From: a virus
Virus record (IMG/VR): IMGVR_UViG_3300045988_168459
Length of the DNA stretch: 18,984 nt
Reading direction: 5' to 3' (one strand)
Both the position numbers and the translations under genes were made by a program. The notes beneath the pieces were generated by a model that saw nothing but the letters and a program-made list of their open reading frames with translations, was not told the DNA's origin and did no database searches. Positions within the stretch are counted from its first letter, which is position 1; every line of letters begins with the position of its first letter. Below are positions 3,770 through 18,984 of the stretch, piece after piece.

Positions 3770-3937
3770 TTATTTTTGAAATTTATTTTCTAAAGTTTCC
3801 ATGCGTGTTGATAATTCTTTTAATGTTACATTAAGATTAACTAATGCGTCTGTAAATTTAGCATTGTTAATAAACATTACAATACAACACCCGATTGGAA
3901 AACCTACATTTGAAATCATACTTACTATTTCTTCCAT
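3770..3937 (-). CDS. Holin-like small membrane protein, 55 aa (BhlA/UviB/YvrJ-like topology), not in the ORF track
   Basis: Hand translation gives MEEIVSMISNVGFPIGCCIVMFINNAKFTDALVNLNVTLKELSTRMETLENKFQK. This is one N-terminal TM segment plus a charged helical tail. An upstream purine-rich RBS (GAGAGAGG) is present. It occupies the phi29 gene-14 (holin) position just before the packaging ATPase. Confidence 0.55.
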   Translation of the reverse strand: MEEIVSMISNVGFPIGCCIVMFINNAKFTDALVNLNVTLKELSTRMETLENKFQK

Positions 3938-4543: not shown

Positions 4544-4561
4544 ATTTATTCCTCCTTTTAT

Positions 4562-4598
4562 ACAATAAAATGTAAAATTTGCATTTACACTTTATTGT
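4562..4598. promoter_or_regulatory. 37-bp near-perfect palindrome overlapping the promoter -10
   Basis: On the minus strand ACAATAAAGTGTAAA-tgcaaat-TTTACATTTTATTGT forms 15 pairs if one G-T is allowed. It overlaps TACAAT at 4594-4599. Confidence 0.6.
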
Positions 4599-4622
4599 AT
4601 GTTTATATAATTATATCGTGAA
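4594..4622 (-). promoter_or_regulatory. Promoter TTCACG-17-TACAAT (minus strand)
   Basis: The reverse complement of 4617-4622 is TTCACG, then a 17-nt spacer, and the reverse complement of 4594-4599 is TACAAT. It shares the CATACAATAAAGTGTA context with 12371-12387. Confidence 0.45.
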
Positions 4623-4651: not shown

Positions 4652-6418
4652 TTAGTATTGATACATAGGGCAAGTTATATTAATTTTTAGAATATAATTT
4701 GTATCATTTTTAGAGTCGCAAAGAATGGTTCTACTATCATACATATCTTTTGTTGACATTATACGTATTTTTTGTTCACCAGAATTTATATAACCTCTTA
4801 TATACCCCATACATTGAAAGTTATTTTCGGTCATAATTCCATATTCAACTGGGAAAGAATAATCTCCATCTTTAAAATACATATAACTATTGGGTAACGT
4901 TCCTATACCTATACCAATTGTCGAAGGTAACACTCCTTTTTCGCTAGGGTTATATTCAAATTCAACTTGTAAAGAAAAAGTTTCTTGTGCTAATTTTATT
5001 ATATTTTTATTGATTGTTAATGATGTTGTAGTATTTATTAATTCATTGTTCATACAGCTTTGAAGTTTATTAAAACTATAAAAATGGTCTGTTGTATTTA
5101 GTTTTAACAATGTATGATTATTAGGGATATTTGTAATCTCATATTTATAGCTTCCATCTGTAGCTTTAAATCCATTCATTAAGCTACCATTCATTGATAC
5201 CCTATCTAGTAATGAAGCATTTGCGTCTTTGCAGTAGAAAATATAACCTTTATCTCCTTTTGAAAATATTTCATCACTTAATATTTCATAACTATTAAAA
5301 CCATAATTGTTAGTTATACTTAACTTTCCTTTATCCCCCATATAATAATATATTTGTTGGGTGTCGGGATAACATTTATCTAATATTACATGGTGATAAG
5401 AGTTCATTTTAAAAAATATTGAGTCTTTCCACATAACTTTAGGGTTCGTTATTAAACCATGAACCTCACTATAAAAGCAATTTCCTGAATTGTGTTCAAT
5501 AGAAATATGACAGTTAAATATATCCATATGGCTAACTACATTATCATAAACATTATTTTTAAAACCTATTGTATTAATTTTTGTTTTATTACCTTGTAAC
5601 CATATATAATTAAATTTATTAACATTCCCTTCATCACATTGAATACCTACACTATTTATATTTATAATTTTTATTGATTTAAATTCTCTTCTTTGAGAAA
5701 ATGAAAGTTTTAAACCTATATTTGAAATATTATTGCAATCTATAATAATATTTTCTATTTTACCATTATAACTATTTGAACCTTTATGATAAATGTCAAT
5801 TGCTGGATTTTCTGTAGTTGCCTTTATTGTAGAACCGTTGAAATTGGCATTTAATACACCATTTATATTTAATGTAGCATTTATTATATAAGTTTTATTT
5901 TTTTTTGAAACCAACAAAACATTATTAGATATAGCATAGTTTATAGCATTTTGTAATCTTTCAGTATCATTCGCTCCTTCAACCATTTCTGGTGTGATAA
6001 AAGTTGTAATATTATCCAATTCTGAATTAAATTCGTCAATTGTACTTTGAAAAGTTTCATTGTTTACTTTTTTATTAATTTCATTTTTATTTTCTTCAAT
6101 TTTATTACTATTTTCTTCAGCTTTATTTTTAGCATAATCAATTTTATTTTTATTATCTAATATTTCATTTTTATTAAATTCAATTTTATTATTTAGTTGA
6201 ACTTGTATATTTTCATCAATTATTATTCTTTTTAAACTTTCATAATCACTTTTAATTTTTTTCATTAAAGTAACTAAATTTGTATCACTTAATTTAATTT
6301 TTTCTGAAAGTTTTTCAATGACTTTTCCTAATCTCTTCCATTGCTGAAAGTCGATAGCATTTTGGTCTTGTAATTCTTTTACATTTTGTTGAATTTTGTT
6401 TATATCATTATCACTCAT
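4652..6418 (-). CDS. Pre-neck appendage / tailspike, 588 aa, with an N-terminal coiled coil and a right-handed beta-helix (pectate-lyase-like) domain
   Basis: Start moved to the ATG at 6418 (MSDNDINK), which has RBS AGGAGG. The track start at 6457 has none and overlaps the upstream gene. The beta-helix entry motif TPEMVEGANDTERLQNAINYA is followed by N/I/G-rich repeats. The position matches phi29 gene 12. Confidence 0.75.
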   Translation of the reverse strand: MSDNDINKIQQNVKELQDQNAIDFQQWKRLGKVIEKLSEKIKLSDTNLVTLMKKIKSDYESLKRIIIDENIQVQLNNKIEFNKNEILDNKNKIDYAKNKAEENSNKIEENKNEINKKVNNETFQSTIDEFNSELDNITTFITPEMVEGANDTERLQNAINYAISNNVLLVSKKNKTYIINATLNINGVLNANFNGSTIKATTENPAIDIYHKGSNSYNGKIENIIIDCNNISNIGLKLSFSQRREFKSIKIININSVGIQCDEGNVNKFNYIWLQGNKTKINTIGFKNNVYDNVVSHMDIFNCHISIEHNSGNCFYSEVHGLITNPKVMWKDSIFFKMNSYHHVILDKCYPDTQQIYYYMGDKGKLSITNNYGFNSYEILSDEIFSKGDKGYIFYCKDANASLLDRVSMNGSLMNGFKATDGSYKYEITNIPNNHTLLKLNTTDHFYSFNKLQSCMNNELINTTTSLTINKNIIKLAQETFSLQVEFEYNPSEKGVLPSTIGIGIGTLPNSYMYFKDGDYSFPVEYGIMTENNFQCMGYIRGYINSGEQKIRIMSTKDMYDSRTILCDSKNDTNYILKINITCPMYQY

Positions 6419-6428
6419 AATATACCTC

Positions 6429-7082
6429 CTAAAAAACAAATAAGAATAAGTTTTCAAGTTCTTTAAATATCATTAAGTCTATGTTAATTAAAACATTTCT
6501 CCATTTTTCTAAAAGTTCTGCACTTGATGTAACACCAATATTACCTTGTGATATTAATTCATACTCTTCTATATTATTTGACTTATTTTTTATTGTATTG
6601 TTTGCATTTGATGTTGAATTATTTGTTGAATTACTATTACTTTTACTTGCTGATGTCATGTATTTATCTAAGTCGTCAATTTTATTCTGTGGTGTATCAT
6701 TAGCAATTGTTAAATCATTACTGGTAGATGTGTTATCACTACTAGAAGTGGCTTGACTATTTCCCTCACTTTCTCCGTTCAACTTTCTTATATAACTTTC
6801 TTTTAAATCTTTATTTAGCATAAAATCTATATTTTGACATCTTATTTCTGTTTCATAAAGTTGTTTATATTTTGGATAAATGTCATTTAGTGTGGAAATT
6901 AAGTGTTGTTTAAAAATATTAATATTATCAAATCCAATTTCATAAAACATAAAGTGCTGAAAGAATTTTTCTTGAAAGTAAGGCTTTAACTCATTATTAT
7001 ATAAGTTATAAGGTTGGTCAAATAAATTGTAAGTATCATCTTTATAAATGTAATAAAGTTGTAATGTATATTTACTACTCAT
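6429..7082 (-). CDS. Lower collar protein (phi29 gp11 position), 217 aa
   Basis: Start moved to the ATG at 7082 (MSSKYT), with RBS AAGGAGG and an ATGAGTAG overlap with the portal stop. The call rests on synteny immediately after the portal gene. There is a central S/N/T-rich low-complexity region. Confidence 0.6.
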   Translation of the reverse strand: MSSKYTLQLYYIYKDDTYNLFDQPYNLYNNELKPYFQEKFFQHFMFYEIGFDNINIFKQHLISTLNDIYPKYKQLYETEIRCQNIDFMLNKDLKESYIRKLNGESEGNSQATSSSDNTSTSNDLTIANDTPQNKIDDLDKYMTSASKSNSNSTNNSTSNANNTIKNKSNNIEEYELISQGNIGVTSSAELLEKWRNVLINIDLMIFKELENLFLFVF

Positions 7083-10816: not shown

Positions 10817-10836
10817 AAAGGGGAAAATTCCCCTTT
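10817..10836 (-). terminator. Strong hairpin just after the capsid gene (probable leaky terminator)
   Basis: AAAGGGGA (10817-10824) pairs with TCCCCTTT (10829-10836) around a 4-nt loop, followed on the minus strand by TCTAATATT. It sits in the 44-nt gap before the next RBS. Confidence 0.5.
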
Positions 10837-10839
10837 ATA

Positions 10840-11886
10840 TTATTCTTTTACTACAAATTTTACACAATTTACAAAGTTACAACTTGCAACAATTCCCCAT
10901 CTATTGAACCAAACATTTGTGTAAAGTGCTTGTGGGTTTCTAAATGTTTCAGAACTGTTTAAAGTTTCCCATATTTGTATTGCTTCTTTATCACAAATTA
11001 TACATTGAGTTTCTGTATCTTCGCCATAAGTGTAAGTAGAAGTTGACTTTGTGCATTTTTCGAAATAATCAATTGGTAATACATGAAGATTAATTTCGTC
11101 ATAACTTACATTAAATGCTTGTGCTAATAATTGAACGTCCATGACTGCAAGTAAGTCAGTTGGAACAAAGCAAACTAACTCATTAGGTTTACTGTATGTC
11201 ATTACACCTTGACCGTTATAATTATTAGATAAAAATTTCATCTTTAATATATAAGATTTTATTGCAGTAACTAAGCTTTCAGCCTTAGCTTTTAATGTTA
11301 ATTTATCATATTCAGTTTTTCCAATTTTTACTTCAGCACCTTTTATGTGAGCAAGTGCATGTTTTACTAATAAAAAATCATCATATTCAGCAGAATTTAA
11401 AGGTGCTTGTAAAATTCTACTTGTTAATTCACTTAATCCGTTTTCATTTCTAAACGCTCCCTTTAATTCCTCGTCAGAAATAGTTGCTTGATATTGCATT
11501 TGTTTATTTTCACTATAATATTCAACCGTTACCTTTGGTGCTTGCCTACTTAATAAATCACTTGCTAAATTTGTTGCAGTTGTTTGTCTTGTTCTATCTT
11601 TACCTTTTACAATATCAACAAAAATACTTTCAATTGATTTTCCGTAAGGTAGTATTCCTTTTTTAAATAGCTTGTACGGATTTTCATAAGCCTTATTAAA
11701 AAATCTTTGTTTAGCAACTTGGTTTGTAAGTACAGTTACAAACTCGTTTTTTACCGTAGGATAAGTTGAAATAATATCAGCAATTTTGTGCATATTTGCT
11801 TTTGTAACATCACCTATTCTATCATTAAATTCTTGACTTGTTGCACTTGCAAGTGCTTTTGTAAAAGTAACATTATCTAATGCCAT
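10840..11886 (-). CDS. Major capsid protein, phi29 gp8-like (HK97 fold), 348 aa
   Basis: Shared blocks with remembered gp8: N.F.T.L...., NP.K.FKKG..P.G..IE.I..DI.K.K, LA.AFN, ET.RNP..LY. RBS AGGGGGA. It follows the scaffold gene. Confidence 0.9.
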   Translation of the reverse strand: MALDNVTFTKALASATSQEFNDRIGDVTKANMHKIADIISTYPTVKNEFVTVLTNQVAKQRFFNKAYENPYKLFKKGILPYGKSIESIFVDIVKGKDRTRQTTATNLASDLLSRQAPKVTVEYYSENKQMQYQATISDEELKGAFRNENGLSELTSRILQAPLNSAEYDDFLLVKHALAHIKGAEVKIGKTEYDKLTLKAKAESLVTAIKSYILKMKFLSNNYNGQGVMTYSKPNELVCFVPTDLLAVMDVQLLAQAFNVSYDEINLHVLPIDYFEKCTKSTSTYTYGEDTETQCIICDKEAIQIWETLNSSETFRNPQALYTNVWFNRWGIVASCNFVNCVKFVVKE

Positions 11887-11898
11887 AATTTATTCCCC

Positions 11899-12180
11899 CT
11901 ATTTATCAAAATTCTTTAAAATATAATCTATGTCAATTTCATTATCAACATCTTTTTTAGAAGATGTATTATTATTCGAATTATTTGAAACTGGTATTTG
12001 CTCGAACAATTCATAATTTTTTATTTTTAATCTATTTATTTCTTCATTTAAAGAAGTTATATTGTTTTCTTTTTCTGTCATTGCTACTTTTTGATTTTCT
12101 AACAAATCATTTAAATTTTTATTTTTATCTTCAATTTTCTTTATATATTCTTTTGCCTCTTCAATTGTTTTAAATTCCAT
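11899..12180 (-). CDS. Putative scaffolding protein, 93 aa, coiled coil
   Basis: Small, acidic and heptad-rich, directly upstream of the capsid gene as phi29 gene 7 is. RBS AAGGGGG. Confidence 0.6.
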   Translation of the reverse strand: MEFKTIEEAKEYIKKIEDKNKNLNDLLENQKVAMTEKENNITSLNEEINRLKIKNYELFEQIPVSNNSNNNTSSKKDVDNEIDIDYILKNFDK

Positions 12181-12214
12181 AATTTAACCCCCTTATTCAT
12201 TATACTTTTATATT

Positions 12215-12369
12215 CTTATTAAAACCCTCATTTAAGAGGATTTTATAAAAATACAAAACTGCAATTATTTAAATGTATATAATAGTGTTGCAAATCACAA
12301 TATTACAGTTAAAGGCTCTTCACCTTTGCACTTAACTATAAGTATTATATTTAAACTTTTAAATAACTA
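12215..12369 (-). ncRNA. Candidate non-coding RNA or long structured leader of about 150 nt (pRNA candidate)
   Basis: The region is bracketed by the promoter at 12376-12404 and by a hairpin at 12221-12244 (AAAAUCCUC-uuaaau-GAGGGUUUU, which has a G-U pair only in the minus-strand RNA) followed by U-rich sequence. There is no RBS or ORF. A locally GC-richer core contains several short complementary segments. Confidence 0.3.
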
Positions 12370-12375
12370 CACTTT

Positions 12376-12404
12376 ATTGTATGTAAAAATAAAATAAAGG
12401 TTAA
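12376..12404 (-). promoter_or_regulatory. Promoter TTAACC-17-TACAAT (minus strand) upstream of the late block
   Basis: The reverse complement of 12399-12404 is TTAACC, then a 17-nt spacer, and the reverse complement of 12376-12381 is TACAAT. The -35 lies in the 3' arm of the upstream terminator hairpin. Confidence 0.5.
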
Positions 12405-12418
12405 CAAAAGTTAACCTT
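12397..12418. terminator. Intrinsic terminator after the sigma-like gene
   Basis: AAGGTTAAC-aaaa-GTTAACCTT perfect 9-bp stem with T-rich sequence on both sides, 19 nt downstream of the stop at 12437. Confidence 0.7.
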
Positions 12419-12436
12419 TTTTGTATTATTTTTGTA

Positions 12437-13126
12437 TTAATTGTATAATAATTCTTTTATTTCCTCATCTTTTTTGTTTTTAACAATTTGTTTTCTTAAA
12501 CATTCTACCCTTAAATAAACTGTATGTCTTGTAAATTCTTTCCCTTGTTTTGTTTTATAACCATGTTTGGTTAAATAGTTGGCTATTTGACTAAAACTAA
12601 ACCCATCTGATAACATATATAAAATTATTTTATTAATTTCATAATAATAAGAATTTCCACAATCTAAGATTTCATTTATTGCAGTTTCTAAAGTTTCAAA
12701 ATGGTATTCATCTTCTTTCCCAGTATACCTATCAAGTAAATTTTCTCTTTCACTATCACCATTATTTTCTAAAATGTAATCTGTAGAATAATCAGCTCCA
12801 AATTCATTAAATTTTGATTTTCTATCGTTATCCCTTAACTTACTACCTAACTCTCTAAAAATTACTGTTGCTACAAAAGTGTTAGCACTTGATATTTCAT
12901 AATTTAATTGACACCAAACCTTGCTTAATTTTACACAAACAATTGATACACAATCTTCATAGTCTAACTTTAATCTATTGAAACCACTTTTATATTTATC
13001 ATATACCACTTTTACCCTTGCATAAATATATTTCATATTTTCCTCGCAAAACTCGTTAAAGTCTTTATAAATTTTTCTTTCCTTTAATTCTCCAAACTTA
13101 TTTTCTCTTACTATTACTTTACTCAT
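12437..13126 (-). CDS. Sigma-70-family (ECF / group-5-like) RNA polymerase sigma factor, 229 aa
   Basis: Start moved to the ATG at 13126 (RBS AAGGGGA, 9-nt spacing). The region-2-like block is DYEDCVSIVCVKLSK...TFVATVIFRELGSKLRDNDRK. The region-4-like HTH is ILYMLSDGFSFSQIANYL...TVYLRVECLRKQI. Confidence 0.6.
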   Translation of the reverse strand: MSKVIVRENKFGELKERKIYKDFNEFCEENMKYIYARVKVVYDKYKSGFNRLKLDYEDCVSIVCVKLSKVWCQLNYEISSANTFVATVIFRELGSKLRDNDRKSKFNEFGADYSTDYILENNGDSERENLLDRYTGKEDEYHFETLETAINEILDCGNSYYYEINKIILYMLSDGFSFSQIANYLTKHGYKTKQGKEFTRHTVYLRVECLRKQIVKNKKDEEIKELLYN

Positions 13127-13150
13127 TTTCACCAATCCCCTTTTATTTTA

Positions 13151-15310
13151 TTATCTTTCAAAATAATTATTTAAACTAATCATGTAAGGTTGTTCTTGTA
13201 TTATTGTACCACCTTTTATAATTTTACTCTTTTTAGATTTTATTAACCCTTTAATCTTTTGTGTACATGCTTTATCTTTATAATAATATATACTACCTTC
13301 TTTTGTAAAGTATTCCATTTTTGCTAATTCTTTTGCAGAATATTCGCAAACATCAAATACTTTTATATCATCTAACTTTTTCATTATTTCATCAGTTAAC
13401 CCACAACATTTAATTTCCCATTTATGAGTTTTAGTATTTTTTTCTGCATATCTTTTAGAACCGATATATTTAAAATCTTCAAAACACATTTCATTATCCC
13501 ATAATCCATATATTTTCTTTCCAATTTCAACACCTTTTACTTGTTCAATTGTTCCAAACAAATGTAAACTGTCAGTATCACAATACATAAATCTTTCATA
13601 GTTGTTATTAATTGCTTGAACTAAATATTGTTTCGCCCAGCTTGTAATGAAAGTTGCCATTGGTAAATATATTGTATCACTTACAACATTTTCATGTGTG
13701 TGTTCAATTGTGAATACATCATCTACATTTTGAAAGTTTGTTAATTCTGTAACTCCTGCCATACCAAACTTACCATACAATCCATTTTGCATTAGCTTTG
13801 CAAATGCCCTTAAAGCACCCTCGTTTTCTTGTTTTATTTTGCTCCAAAAATCAATGTAATTTTTAAACAAATTATAACTCCCTCTAAAAGCCATATGACC
13901 ACCAAGTTTATAAGCCTTTACATCATAACATTCAAAAAGCAAATCCAATAAAACGTTTGTTAATCTTAAATGTAATGTTACTTTTTTCCCATCTTTAATG
14001 TTATTTTTTAAGCACTCCCTTCCACTAAAATATTTGTTGTCTTTTACTTGTAAGAATGACATTTTATTCTTTTTAACTTTCAAATCAAAAATCGTTATAT
14101 CTTGAATGTAAAGAGGGTAAACTTCTTTATATTTTTCATTCATATTTTTATATGGAGTATCCCTATATTGTGGGTCGCCATAAGGTAATAATCGTGAAGT
14201 CATTACAAAAGGATATAATGAATTAACATCTAAAACAATACCATGTTTATTTTTTCTTTTACTAAACTTTTTCACATTATTATATTCAACAGTAGAAAGA
14301 CCACCATAGTAACTATGCCTTTGCCATGCGTCTTGGAAATATGATTGCTTTGGAAATAAAGCTTCAAAAATTATATTACTTTTTATTTCTGTTACATTAC
14401 CTTTATTTTTTAGTTTATGAAAATTTGTTTTCATTAGTTTAGTATCAACCATTTCATATAAATTTTCATTTTCAAAACCATTTTGTTTGTTAATATAATC
14501 TTCTAAAAGTGTTAATTTATAATTTGCTAATGCTTGACCCGAATTTGTAAGTTTATCATATTTAATCTTTTGACCGTTTAAATCAATACCATTTATTTTT
14601 AATAATTTCACTAAATAACTTAATCCATAAACGTCCTCATAAATATACGTCATTTCTTGCTCTGTTAAATCATCATCAAGAGTTCTTTCTTTATCATAGT
14701 CTAAACCATCTTTACCCAAATTCAATCCTAGAAAATCAGAACAACATTTTTTTAATGAAAACGGAGCAAGTTTAAAGGTATCATAAAAATTTATTAATCC
14801 AAATTCTGTTGCTATTGTTAATTTATAAAATACACCATTTTTCATAAGTAATCGATATTCAAAAGGTTTTAATTCTTTATTTTCTTTATCAGAACTTTGA
14901 AAGTTTAAAACCTCATAAATTTTTTCAAATTCATTCCATTGTTTTTTCAAAAAATAATCCTCTTGTCTTTGTTTATTTCCATATCTCTTTACAAAGTCTA
15001 GTAAAAAAGGTTTTACATCATATAAGCAGTTATGAGCAAATAAATTAATTTGTTTACAATTTAGATTTATTAACATATCATTAAATTTACTAACATTATT
15101 GTACCAGTAACATAAATCACTATCATTATTACAACTCATAAGAGCAATTGAATAAGTTAACATCTCACTTTTATTATTTATTGCACACGCTTCTATATCA
15201 AATGCAAAATTCAATACGTCTCTTTCACTTGTTGCTTTTATTTTATCTTTAGAAATATAATTCATAATCCCATTATTCTTTATATCTTTTAACCTTTTAT
15301 TCAAATCCAT
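13151..15310 (-). CDS. Protein-primed family-B DNA polymerase, 719 aa
   Basis: All signature motifs are present: ExoI FDIEA, ExoII HNCLYD, ExoIII YIYED, motif A DVNSLYP, motif B KLMQNGLYGKFG, motif C YCDTDS, and KxY (SKRY). Confidence 0.97.
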   Translation of the reverse strand: MDLNKRLKDIKNNGIMNYISKDKIKATSERDVLNFAFDIEACAINNKSEMLTYSIALMSCNNDSDLCYWYNNVSKFNDMLINLNCKQINLFAHNCLYDVKPFLLDFVKRYGNKQRQEDYFLKKQWNEFEKIYEVLNFQSSDKENKELKPFEYRLLMKNGVFYKLTIATEFGLINFYDTFKLAPFSLKKCCSDFLGLNLGKDGLDYDKERTLDDDLTEQEMTYIYEDVYGLSYLVKLLKINGIDLNGQKIKYDKLTNSGQALANYKLTLLEDYINKQNGFENENLYEMVDTKLMKTNFHKLKNKGNVTEIKSNIIFEALFPKQSYFQDAWQRHSYYGGLSTVEYNNVKKFSKRKNKHGIVLDVNSLYPFVMTSRLLPYGDPQYRDTPYKNMNEKYKEVYPLYIQDITIFDLKVKKNKMSFLQVKDNKYFSGRECLKNNIKDGKKVTLHLRLTNVLLDLLFECYDVKAYKLGGHMAFRGSYNLFKNYIDFWSKIKQENEGALRAFAKLMQNGLYGKFGMAGVTELTNFQNVDDVFTIEHTHENVVSDTIYLPMATFITSWAKQYLVQAINNNYERFMYCDTDSLHLFGTIEQVKGVEIGKKIYGLWDNEMCFEDFKYIGSKRYAEKNTKTHKWEIKCCGLTDEIMKKLDDIKVFDVCEYSAKELAKMEYFTKEGSIYYYKDKACTQKIKGLIKSKKSKIIKGGTIIQEQPYMISLNNYFER

Positions 15311-16128
15311 TAATCATACACTCCTTTTAAACCTTTAAGTGTTTTATATTTTTCTATTGATTTAGTAACAGTATCATAAATATTTGTTTCAATTCTTTCT
15401 TCGTTTCCAATTACACTATCTTCGGGGTATCTATCTCTTAAATCTCTTAAAACTTCTTTAATCCACATATCTTTTTGTAGTGGTGATAATCTATTATATT
15501 CTTTCCTTATCATTTCTTGTATATAAGGCTTACACCCTAACTGTATGCTAGGTGATGTCATAAATTCATTATTAAACCAATTGTCATTTTCTGTACTGTC
15601 TGTTAATTTTTTATAGACATTGATAAATTTTATTTCTTTCATATCTTGTTTGAACTTCTTTATCATTTCCTTTTTAGTTTTACTGTCTGCAATGTAAATA
15701 TCATCTAAATGTTGTAATGGAATACCATCATAAATAAATGATTTTTTATCGTAATAAGTTAGAAATAAATCTTTACCTTTAAGGTAATTTACTTGTAAAC
15801 TAGGTAAATTCATAGTTTCAAGTGCTTGGAGTGTTTTATCAACTTCTCTATTGAACTTTTTAACAGTTTGATTATATTGATAGTCAATTGACTTTTTATA
15901 AGATTTTTTTATACTAGTTTCTTTTTTAATAACAGAATTTAATCCAGTAGTAATTTTATTAACTGCTTGTGTTAATTGCCTTTGTGTAAGTGATTTGCCT
16001 TGCAAATACGTTGGAATTGAGTACCCTAATAGTTCATATTTTTTAACTAAATATTTAATTTTTTGTTTATCATTTTTATTTGAAAAGTCTACCCTTTTAA
16101 GACCACTTAATTGACGTTTAGCGTTCAT
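15310..16128 (-). CDS. Putative terminal protein (replication primer), 272 aa
   Basis: Immediately upstream of the polymerase gene and translationally coupled to it (TAATG overlap). Its size matches phi29 gene 3 (266 aa). It is basic and Lys-rich. The call rests on position, not on sequence similarity. Confidence 0.65.
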   Translation of the reverse strand: MNAKRQLSGLKRVDFSNKNDKQKIKYLVKKYELLGYSIPTYLQGKSLTQRQLTQAVNKITTGLNSVIKKETSIKKSYKKSIDYQYNQTVKKFNREVDKTLQALETMNLPSLQVNYLKGKDLFLTYYDKKSFIYDGIPLQHLDDIYIADSKTKKEMIKKFKQDMKEIKFINVYKKLTDSTENDNWFNNEFMTSPSIQLGCKPYIQEMIRKEYNRLSPLQKDMWIKEVLRDLRDRYPEDSVIGNEERIETNIYDTVTKSIEKYKTLKGLKGVYD

Positions 16129-16177: not shown

Positions 16178-16206
16178 ATTTTACCAAATATTACTCATGA
16201 TTTCAA
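16178..16206 (-). promoter_or_regulatory. Promoter TTGAAA-17-TAAAAT for the TP-pol-sigma operon
   Basis: The reverse complement of 16201-16206 is TTGAAA, then a 17-nt spacer, and the reverse complement of 16178-16183 is TAAAAT. Confidence 0.55.
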
Positions 16207-18161: not shown

Positions 18162-18449
18162 TTATTCTCTGTAATAATCATAAATTTCTATTGCGTATGG
18201 ATAATTATCTAAAAAATTATTAATAAAATCAACTGTATAAACCTCTTTTTCTTTATTAGGACATATTACACTACAAGAGTCAGTTAACACTAATTCACTA
18301 TTAATTTTATTACCAAATTCAAATAATTCGTTCAAAGTATTAATTTCAAATACTTTTACAACATAATCTTTAAAATTAAACTCCTCAATAATTTTATAAT
18401 CATAATTTTTAAAATCTCTTCCACTTGTACAATAAAAACAAATTTTCAT
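18162..18449 (-). CDS. Hypothetical acidic early protein, 95 aa
   Basis: ORF with RBS AGGAGGTG. About 17 Asp/Glu against 10 Lys/Arg. Its first 16 codons lie inside the 158-bp tandem repeat. Confidence 0.65.
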   Translation of the reverse strand: MKICFYCTSGRDFKNYDYKIIEEFNFKDYVVKVFEINTLNELFEFGNKINSELVLTDSCSVICPNKEKEVYTVDFINNFLDNYPYAIEIYDYYRE

Positions 18450-18460
18450 TTTAACACCTC

Positions 18461-18529
18461 CTATAAATCAGCTATTATGTATGAAGAAAATAATATAATA
18501 AATGAAAATACTATTATTGGTAATAACAT
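18461..18529 (-). CDS. Hydrophobic micro-peptide, 22 aa (MLLPIIVFSFIILFSSYIIADL), copy 1
   Basis: The ATG is preceded by GGGAGGTG at 6-nt spacing. It lies entirely within the repeat unit. Confidence 0.4.
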   Translation of the reverse strand: MLLPIIVFSFIILFSSYIIADL

Positions 18530-18541
18530 TTTATCACCTCC

Positions 18542-18607
18542 CTATATTATATTGTATGAATAATTTTTAAAATCTCTTCCACTTGTACAATAAAAACAAA
18601 TTTTCAT
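18542..18607 (-). pseudogene. Truncated duplicate of the 5' end of the 95-aa gene (MKICFYCTSGRDFKNY then SYNII-stop)
   Basis: Created by the tandem duplication. It has the same RBS and first 16 codons as 18449, then runs into repeat sequence and stops. Confidence 0.6.
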
Positions 18608-18618
18608 TTTAACACCTC

Positions 18619-18687
18619 CTATAAATCAGCTATTATGTATGAAGAAAATAATATAATAAATGAAAATACTATTATTGGTAATAACAT
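18619..18687 (-). CDS. Hydrophobic micro-peptide, 22 aa, copy 2 (identical)
   Basis: Identical to 18461-18529 with a +158 offset and the same RBS. Confidence 0.4.
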   Translation of the reverse strand: MLLPIIVFSFIILFSSYIIADL

Positions 18688-18708
18688 TTTATCACCTCCC
18701 TATATTAT

Positions 18709-18737
18709 ATTGTATGAATAATTTTTAAAAAAGTTAA
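18709..18737 (-). promoter_or_regulatory. Right-end early promoter TTAACT-17-TACAAT
   Basis: The reverse complement of 18732-18737 is TTAACT, then a 17-nt spacer, and the reverse complement of 18709-18714 is TACAAT. It abuts the inner ITR boundary, mirroring the left-end promoter. Confidence 0.55.
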
Positions 18738-18984
18738 TAAATATTTAAAAGAAATTTATAAAAATTTTCGACAAATATTATATCAAGATATGGAGCAATA
18801 ATGTTATAATTATATATAGGATTATTATACGGTATTTGATACTATATATTATGTATGGAACTGTATGAATATATGGTAATGTATACTATATAGGACAAGC
18901 GAACAGATGTTTTACCTATATGGTATTGATTACTACTTAATGGGGGGAAAGATACCACCCGAAAAATGTGCTAAGGCATTTTTT
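18737..18984. repeat. Right inverted terminal repeat (ITR), 248 bp
   Basis: Exact reverse complement of 1-248. Confidence 0.97.

Follow-up and report, generated by a model that had tools for sequence, protein, structure and literature searches.

How does a small phage of the phi29 type switch from early to late transcription when no relative of the phi29 activator can be recognized in its genome? In phi29, late control depends on the activator p4, which together with p6 acts on the host sigma-A polymerase. The IMG/VR virus record IMGVR_UViG_3300045988_168459 raises this question. Its whole stretch of 18,984 nucleotides, called the window in the following, is a phi29-like genome with a gene of 229 codons plus stop on the minus strand (12437..13126), and the encoded protein is the sole recognizable transcription factor of this genome. 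A reading of the letters without database searches (the sequence-only reading) had placed the gene at the early/late boundary and proposed a solution different from p4. The position holds, and no p4-like regulator was recognizable: neither the 229-residue protein nor 10 small or early open reading frames (ORFs) gave a p4-like match in Pfam, and none was shown in PHROG scans. Our analysis indicates that the protein is very probably a homologue of the sigma-70 family. On balance, and with clearly less confidence, we favor the view, derived from its sequence and context, that it acts as a dedicated sigma factor for the switch to late transcription.

The homology is supported by profile comparisons, in which TIGR02937 matched all 22 tested family members (best E 7.4e-9) and Sigma70_r2 matched 20 of the 22 (best E 2.3e-5). 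When the family profile (A1) was compared with 1.84 billion representative proteins, the family formed one cluster at 50% identity, and the nearest relatives outside were proteins of 185-196 amino acids that matched over residues 24-186 with E values of 4.7e-7 to 9e-4. We aligned four of these relatives (A2: P0082, P0089, P0109, and P0121), two of which exceed the curated TIGR02937 cutoff and all of which score against SigH, SigK, SigE, or ECF models. The hhalign comparison of A1 and A2 gave a probability of 98.9% and an E value of 2.4e-17 over 153 columns, corresponding to residues 23-185. In turn, the A2 profile found the sigma-H structure 3mzy in the PDB (E 1.6e-14) as well as region 2 of RpoD/SigA (about 1e-6), and a merged, broadened profile (A3) found 3mzy at E 7e-26, with the matches of A2 and A3 to SigA/RpoD region 2 lying between about 1e-6 and 1e-10. 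The AlphaFold model, which has a predicted local distance difference test score (pLDDT) of 68.6, consists of two helical domains (residues 1-98 and 145-229) that are joined by a disordered linker, and all of the top 50 Foldseek matches in the PDB were sigma factors. Among the viral fold matches, phage ECF/RpoE-like sigma factors dominated. The assignment to the sigma-70 family by the sequence-only reading can therefore be upheld in the sense of a remote homology, based on the TIGR02937, hhalign, and Foldseek results.

The gene itself is real and constrained. It starts with an ATG at 13126 that is preceded by a GGGGA ribosome-binding site 9 nt upstream, and 68 homologues with 59-97% identity, each 229-230 residues long and encoded on contigs of about 17-20 kb, all share the N-terminus MSKVI. 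The ratio of nonsynonymous to synonymous substitution rates (dN/dS) was 0.10-0.19 in comparison to five relatives, which demonstrates purifying selection; dS exceeded 1.2 between the two clades, so that synonymous sites are saturated there. The two sequence blocks quoted by the sequence-only reading are present at residues 56-105 and 175-214. The slot between the gene of the protein-primed DNA polymerase PolB and the late block is occupied by this gene in 21 of 21 related loci. All relatives came from contigs of 17-20 kb in human-gut metagenomes and viromes. None of 185,579 bacterial species genomes encoded one, so that these genomes offer neither a hint at the host nor a prophage copy. Searches of 50,697 phage records by megablast and tblastn gave no match to the gene, and tblastn against plasmids gave merely a weak match to a recombinase helix-turn-helix.

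Seen from the sequence, the domain architecture resembles that of a sigma factor, in that a sigma-2 domain is joined to a sigma-4-like domain by an acidic linker similar to region 3.2. The sigma-2-like helical domain (regions 2.1-2.4; residues 24-98, 12833..13057, minus strand) is the part recognized by Sigma70_r2, TIGR02937, hhalign, and fold comparison; the N-terminal domain of SigE (8b3z) aligns to it with a TM-score of 0.67 (normalized to the target) and a root-mean-square deviation of 3.3 Å, and D58 and T83 are conserved within it. It is preceded by a family-specific extension (residues 1-22, 13061..13126, minus strand), for which AlphaFold2 predicts beta strands at residues 4-8 and 14-18 and which is absent from the A2 relatives. 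The acidic linker (residues 99-143, 12698..12832, minus strand) has a pLDDT below 50 and contains invariant columns; its 45 residues are among the most invariant stretches of the protein, although they are predicted to be disordered. With the A3 profile, the linker sequence YSTDYILENNGDSERENLLDRY aligned to ISLETPIGKEEDSRLGDFIESD of SigA, which belongs to the 'sigma finger' of region 3.2 (8h3v, 8gzg), with a per-domain E value of just 1.3-3.2. In known sigma factors, region 3.2 is ordered only inside the polymerase, and no role of this element is known outside RNA polymerase. Measured against these factors, a linker that is disordered and nevertheless conserved would be hard to reconcile with a free-standing DNA-binding protein.

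The C-terminal part forms a five-helix sigma-4-like domain (residues 144-229, 12440..12697, minus strand; pLDDT of the domain model 88.4). Its best fold match is region 4 of E. coli sigmaE on -35 DNA (2h27; TM-score 0.58, normalized to the target, with an E value of 1.2), and DNA-binding domains of serine integrases are also among its fold matches. The helix-turn-helix (residues 176-216, 12479-12601, minus strand) is atypical, as a conserved basic loop of 12 residues, HGYKTKQGKEFT, takes the place of the turn, and the hhalign alignment of A1 and A2 extends only to the first of its helices.

In its genomic context, the gene is the last cistron of the operon with the putative terminal protein (TP) and PolB, from which it is separated by a 24-bp gap without a terminator. 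Early and late genes share one strand, and a terminator-like hairpin with a T-run (12396..12419, minus strand) directly after the sigma-like gene separates the replication operon from the late block. The sequence-only reading had described the gene as the last of the TP-polymerase operon, immediately before the late block of a phi29-like genome, and the context is as described, with the TP being assigned by position only. We envisage that the sigma-like protein, as the distal product of this operon, would accumulate as replication starts. It would then bind to the host core RNA polymerase, and the holoenzyme would initiate in the adjacent conserved intergenic region, for which the best candidate is a TATAAT element without a -35 box at 12340-12370. 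From there, the late operon of about 9.7 kb, which reaches from the scaffold-position gene to the packaging ATPase gene, would be driven through a structured RNA leader. The layout speaks for such a sequence of events, since a terminator separates the gene from a late region whose best -10 element lacks a -35 box; core binding, promoter choice, and late timing are the steps that we infer.

The intergenic region of 256 bp (12181-12436) is the best-conserved stretch of the genome, although the proteins encoded on either side diverge by as much as 40% and synonymous sites have reached saturation. It contains a promoter-like site TTAACC-17-TACAAT (12376..12404, minus strand) that is built like the end-proximal early promoters TTAACT/TTAACA-17-TACAAT, and a near-invariant 31-mer, GTAGTTATTTAAAAGTTTAAATATAATACTT (12340..12370, minus strand), with a perfect TATAAT and without a sigma-A -35 box. 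The 31-mer is our best guess for the promoter used by the phage sigma factor, and this choice is made by inference only; its -10 box also looks like that of a sigma-A promoter. A second copy of the GTAGTT...TATAAT element was not found in the genome, and no motif can be derived from a single occurrence. A comparison by eye with sigma-H-type and TcdR-type promoter consensus sequences gave no convincing match in the intergenic region. A 17-mer, ACATACAATAAAGTGTA, at 4586-4602 was considered as a further promoter copy and rejected, as it is part of a long AT-rich hairpin and has no conserved -35 box. This hairpin, ATACAATAAAGTGTAAA...TTTACAyTTTATTGTAT (4560-4600, minus strand), lies between genes of the tail-fibre region and shares the 17-mer with the 12376-12404 site. 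It is kept in both clades with varying loops (about 12126 in L001, 13890 in L007, 12270 in L029, and 15324 in L024) and may act as a terminator, as a processing site, or as a bidirectional promoter.

The intergenic region further encodes a structured RNA of about 129 nt (12215..12343, minus strand), either a leader or a small RNA, as indicated by covariation, alignments, and the conservation profile. Hairpin 1 (12303-12341, minus strand) has four stem positions with compensatory changes and an invariant loop of 16-17 nt (12315-12331), GUGCAAAGGUGAAGAGC. It is followed by an invariant 41-mer (12261-12301, minus strand), by a second covarying hairpin, named hairpin 3 (12221-12244, minus strand), and, directly downstream of the structured RNA, by the ribosome-binding site of the first late gene (12188-12194, minus strand). 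In the pair counts, 98.7% of the cells were paired, and the covariation score of 0.239 has to be compared with 0.107 in shuffles, none of 500 of which reached 0.239, and with 0.015-0.049 for slid registers. G-U pairs assign the RNA to the minus strand. In the clade with about 60% identity, the second covarying hairpin is just about 13 nt away from the ribosome-binding site, so that the late mRNA must be transcribed through this element. Possible identities of the RNA are a leader element, a small RNA produced by processing, and an analogue of the packaging RNA (pRNA). Its identity with the known phi29 pRNA was rejected: Rfam contains no family for it, the pRNA model matched neither the whole window (E up to 1) nor the interval 12150-12450 (E up to 10), blastn of the RNA against phage records found nothing, and its covariance model detected no copy in 13 phi29-like genomes without the sigma gene. 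The structured RNA next to the sigma-like gene is an independent lead.

Several results weigh against a dedicated late sigma factor or against its family assignment. The matches of the window protein to Sigma70_r2 (E 0.012, 15.8 bits, residues 53-102) and TIGR02937 (E 1.4e-7, 31.3 bits, residues 24-185) did not reach the curated cutoffs of 24 and 42.9 bits, respectively, and the Sigma70_r4 and r4_2 profiles gave no match at E up to 10. Profile searches, which had been proposed as the check on the sigma-70 assignment, thus recovered region 2 and the general sigma-factor model below their cutoffs and did not recover region 4. The A1 family profile alone found nothing in the PDB, for which the intermediate group A2 was needed. 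None of the Foldseek matches was individually significant, with E values of at least 0.04 for the whole protein and a best E value of 1.2 for the C-terminal domain. In region 2.2, the D-L-x-Q-E motif reads D-C-V-S-I, so that the canonical Q-E is replaced by S-I, and the A3 alignment shows that the tryptophan pair that is canonical in region 2.3 of sigma-70 is absent; more distant relatives (P0089, P0123, and P0124) retain the Q-E. The Pfam Recombinase model PF07508 matched residues 168-217, and all 22 members exceeded its gathering score. At the profile level, the region-4-like block of the sequence-only reading was not borne out: the block exists and has a sigma-4-like fold match, and its profile match is to PF07508 instead of Sigma70_r4. 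Finally, no recurring non-sigma-A promoter motif was found in the genome. All recognizable -10 boxes are TACAAT or TATAAT-like, as had been noted from the sequence before.

These points lead to the main rival, which is a sigma-derived activator working with sigma-A polymerase. Here, the protein would be a DNA-binding regulator that no longer replaces sigma-A and binds to the invariant intergenic DNA via its recombinase-type helix-turn-helix, either to activate a late promoter without a -35 box in a p4-like manner or to repress early transcription, with the host sigma-A holoenzyme carrying out transcription. The sigma-A-like -10 boxes of all recognizable promoters and the lost Q-E of region 2.2 would fit well, and the late candidate without a -35 box is reminiscent of the phi29 late promoter A3, which has none either. 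In addition, the helix-turn-helix matches a stand-alone DNA-binding module that is repeated in many non-sigma proteins, and DNA blocks of 31 nt (near-invariant) and 41 nt (invariant) would suit protein operators. However, the entire sigma-2 domain and the region-3.2-like linker are strongly conserved, which would be hard to explain without insertion into RNA polymerase, and the hhalign alignment over residues 23-185 goes beyond the helix-turn-helix. We therefore regard such a regulator as unlikely, if still as a competitor to be taken seriously. The window protein could take over the job of phi29 p4, switching on a late promoter without a -35 box in a genome of the same type, and the two proteins are unrelated. 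A further difference is that the early and late genes of phi29 are divergent, whereas those of the window lie on the same strand with a terminator between them.

The dedicated late sigma factor could also be part of something larger. In this extended proposal, the sigma-like protein and the ultra-conserved element would together form a previously undescribed late-switch module of phi29-type phages, in which the domain that reads the -35 region has been remodelled into a recombinase-type helix-loop-helix, the promoter is unique, and the first 130 nt or so of the transcript are a structured RNA with invariant loops. The RNA could then be a packaging-RNA analogue that is released from the late leader, or an element that controls read-through into the late genes. 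We give this extended proposal a small chance.

Smaller still is the chance that we assign to a host-directed sigma mimic, which would compete for the core polymerase of the host or turn it toward the host's own genes (in a Firmicute, for instance, the sporulation or stress regulons), to achieve shut-off or reprogramming instead of phage late transcription. Phage sigma factors that alter dormancy are documented (PMC9429907), and the nearest relatives of the family score against the sporulation models SigH, SigK, and SigE. The window family, however, matches mainly the generic TIGR02937, with other sigma models matching weakly and in 1-5 members, and control of dormancy is of little use to a strictly lytic-looking genome of 19 kb that lacks an integrase. 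The gene is moreover fixed at the early/late junction, beside an ultra-conserved phage element.

The least probable alternative, a recombinase or another DNA-processing protein, has the PF07508 match of all 22 members and the top BFVD match, named Recombinase, on its side, and we give it next to no credence, as the match covers just profile positions 10-51 of 102 and thus a single helix-turn-helix, no resolvase catalytic domain or other recombinase part was detected in the window protein at E up to 10, the first 185 residues resemble sigma factors, and the linear, protein-primed genome offers no integrase context. The same helix-turn-helix module occurs as repeats in many unrelated, non-sigma proteins. 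It is this one match that explains why UniProt entry A0A8S5PZV5, a 62% identical relative from a human-gut viral contig, is named 'Recombinase'. A near-identical protein (GenBank DAH28175.1, 95% identity, also from a human-gut viral contig) has already been labelled sigma-like by an automatic pipeline ('MAG TPA: Sigma24, RpoE ...'). The two automatic names contradict each other, and the sequence comparisons indicate that 'Recombinase' is misleading, a label that our analysis corrects.

Returning to the sigma factor interpretation, the best profile and fold matches of the protein are two-domain factors of the sigma-H/ECF type (TIGR02937, 3mzy, E. coli sigmaE, M. tuberculosis SigL, SigH, and SigK), which likewise consist of sigma-2, a linker, and a sigma-4-like domain, without sigma-1.1 or sigma-3. 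In comparison to these factors, the window protein has the extra N-terminal beta-hairpin (residues 1-22), a longer linker of 45 residues, the lost Q-E, and the 12-residue loop in the helix-turn-helix, and no anti-sigma partner is evident. The closest detectable relatives outside the family, the A2 proteins, share only 17-24% identity with it. In the two contexts examined, they are encoded beside GmrSD_N-domain genes on integrase-bearing, prophage-like contigs and not in phi29-like genomes, and their helix-turn-helix looks canonical, without the inserted loop. With regard to lytic phages, SPO1 uses phage sigma factors (PMC13401047). As with SPO1 gp28 and gp33/gp34 and T4 gp55, which bring about the switch to middle or late transcription, and with the many ECF/RpoE-like sigma factors annotated in phages, we are dealing with a small sigma-family protein of a lytic phage that would be made ahead of the late genes and is positioned to redirect the core polymerase of the host. 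No close sequence relationship to any of these proteins is detectable, and the window protein differs by its phi29-type genome of about 19 kb and its atypical sigma-4 helix-turn-helix. In kind, the protein adds a new and divergent member to the phage-encoded sigma factors, a known class, with the phi29-type context and the atypical helix-turn-helix as its notable features.

A kinship with the TcdR/UviA/BotR group, of which the small, Lys-rich protein had reminded the sequence-only reading, was not borne out. The TcdR, UviA, BotR, and TetR factors are likewise small and Lys-rich, stem from low-GC Clostridia, and show generic sigma-4 similarity. The hhalign comparison with UviA of pIP404 gave probabilities of 0.7% with A1 and 11.8% with A3, over 43 generic sigma-4 columns only, and the nearest relatives are sigma-H/ECF-like. 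The neighbors of the sigma-like gene are PolB, scaffold, and capsid genes, with no toxin, bacteriocin, or UviB-type gene adjacent; the holin gene (3770-3937) lies 8.5 kb downstream inside the late operon. We therefore rejected this relationship.

The other phi29-like genomes examined appear to do without such a protein. In susfortuna, a Clostridium perfringens phage, and 12 further viral contigs (n=13), whose polymerases are 26-33% identical to that of the window, no sigma homologue was found when their ORFs were searched with the A1, A2, and A3 hidden Markov models at E up to 1. At the equivalent positions, susfortuna encodes proteins of similar size, gp11 after PolB and gp23 ahead of the late operon, neither of which resembles a sigma factor. 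Sigma factors go unmentioned in a 2024 review of phi29-like phages, and our literature search yielded no paper that ties sigma factors to Guelinviridae, Salasmaviridae, Rountreeviridae, or Madridviridae, no published case of a sigma factor encoded by a phi29-like phage, and no published study of this protein or its genomic role. If the protein is a working sigma factor, a 19-kb phage devotes 3.6% of its genome to it. Its action as proposed here would mean that the smallest tailed phages have found two independent ways of making the early-to-late switch, and it would provide a compact, orthogonal pair of sigma factor and promoter from a low-GC gut phage.

Perfect inverted terminal repeats of 248 bp (1-248 and 18737-18984) mark the window as a full linear genome; its GC content is about 25%. 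The inverted terminal repeats of phi29 are much shorter, with 6 bp. Recognized proteins include the protein-primed PolB, a phi29-type major capsid protein, the connector, the lower collar, and a gp16-type packaging ATPase. The nearest isolates are podoviruses of Clostridium perfringens (Guelinviridae), and their polymerases are just 32-33% identical to that of the window. From the right end, the minus strand carries small ORFs, one of them MazG-like, a 272-residue ORF, PolB, the sigma-like gene, the intergenic region, and the late block. The late block begins with a 93-residue coiled-coil protein at the scaffold position (11899..12180, minus strand), next to the phi29-type major capsid gene (10840-11886), and continues with the tail lysin, a tail protein, the upper and lower collar, the fibre, an appendage protein, the holin, and the gp16-type packaging ATPase. 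A short plus-strand block at the left end includes SSB.

The 272-residue ORF (15310-16128, minus strand) is assigned as the TP by position and size only; it had no family match, and no similarity could be detected to the ORF that occupies this position in susfortuna. Upstream of the operon of TP, PolB, and sigma-like gene, there is a sigma-A-type promoter-like site TTGAAA-17(TG)-TAAAAT (16178..16206, minus strand). This site is found in the clade of the window and not in the clade with the about 60% identical sigma protein, where there is just a hairpin and a ribosome-binding site, so that the operon must be read from further upstream there. The timing of sigma expression may therefore differ between the two clades. 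At the position of the PolB/sigma gap (13127-13150 in the window), the latter clade (L001 and L005-L008) has variable inserts, such as an ORF for a Cys-rich protein of 94 residues in L001, whereas the clade of the window has just the 24-bp gap; the gap is a hot spot of gene gain and loss.

Directly after the capsid gene, a GC-rich hairpin with a T-run (10817-10836) is kept in all relatives with varying loops; as a probable partial terminator, it would adjust how much capsid and scaffold protein is made relative to tail proteins. The two clades differ in their fibre gene, which has been swapped: the window encodes a protein of 601 residues without a family match (4652-6457, minus strand), and L001 encodes one of 648 residues with a glycoside hydrolase 43 domain (12178-14124). 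The swapped gene is likely a host-range module. An exact direct repeat that spans at least 129 bp is found slightly inward of the right terminal repeat, at 18440-18568 and 18598-18726 (minus strand), with the copies 158 bp apart, and it duplicates a TACAAT -10 element, a mini-ORF of 22 codons (MLLPIIVF...), and the start of the first ORF, which encodes 95 residues.

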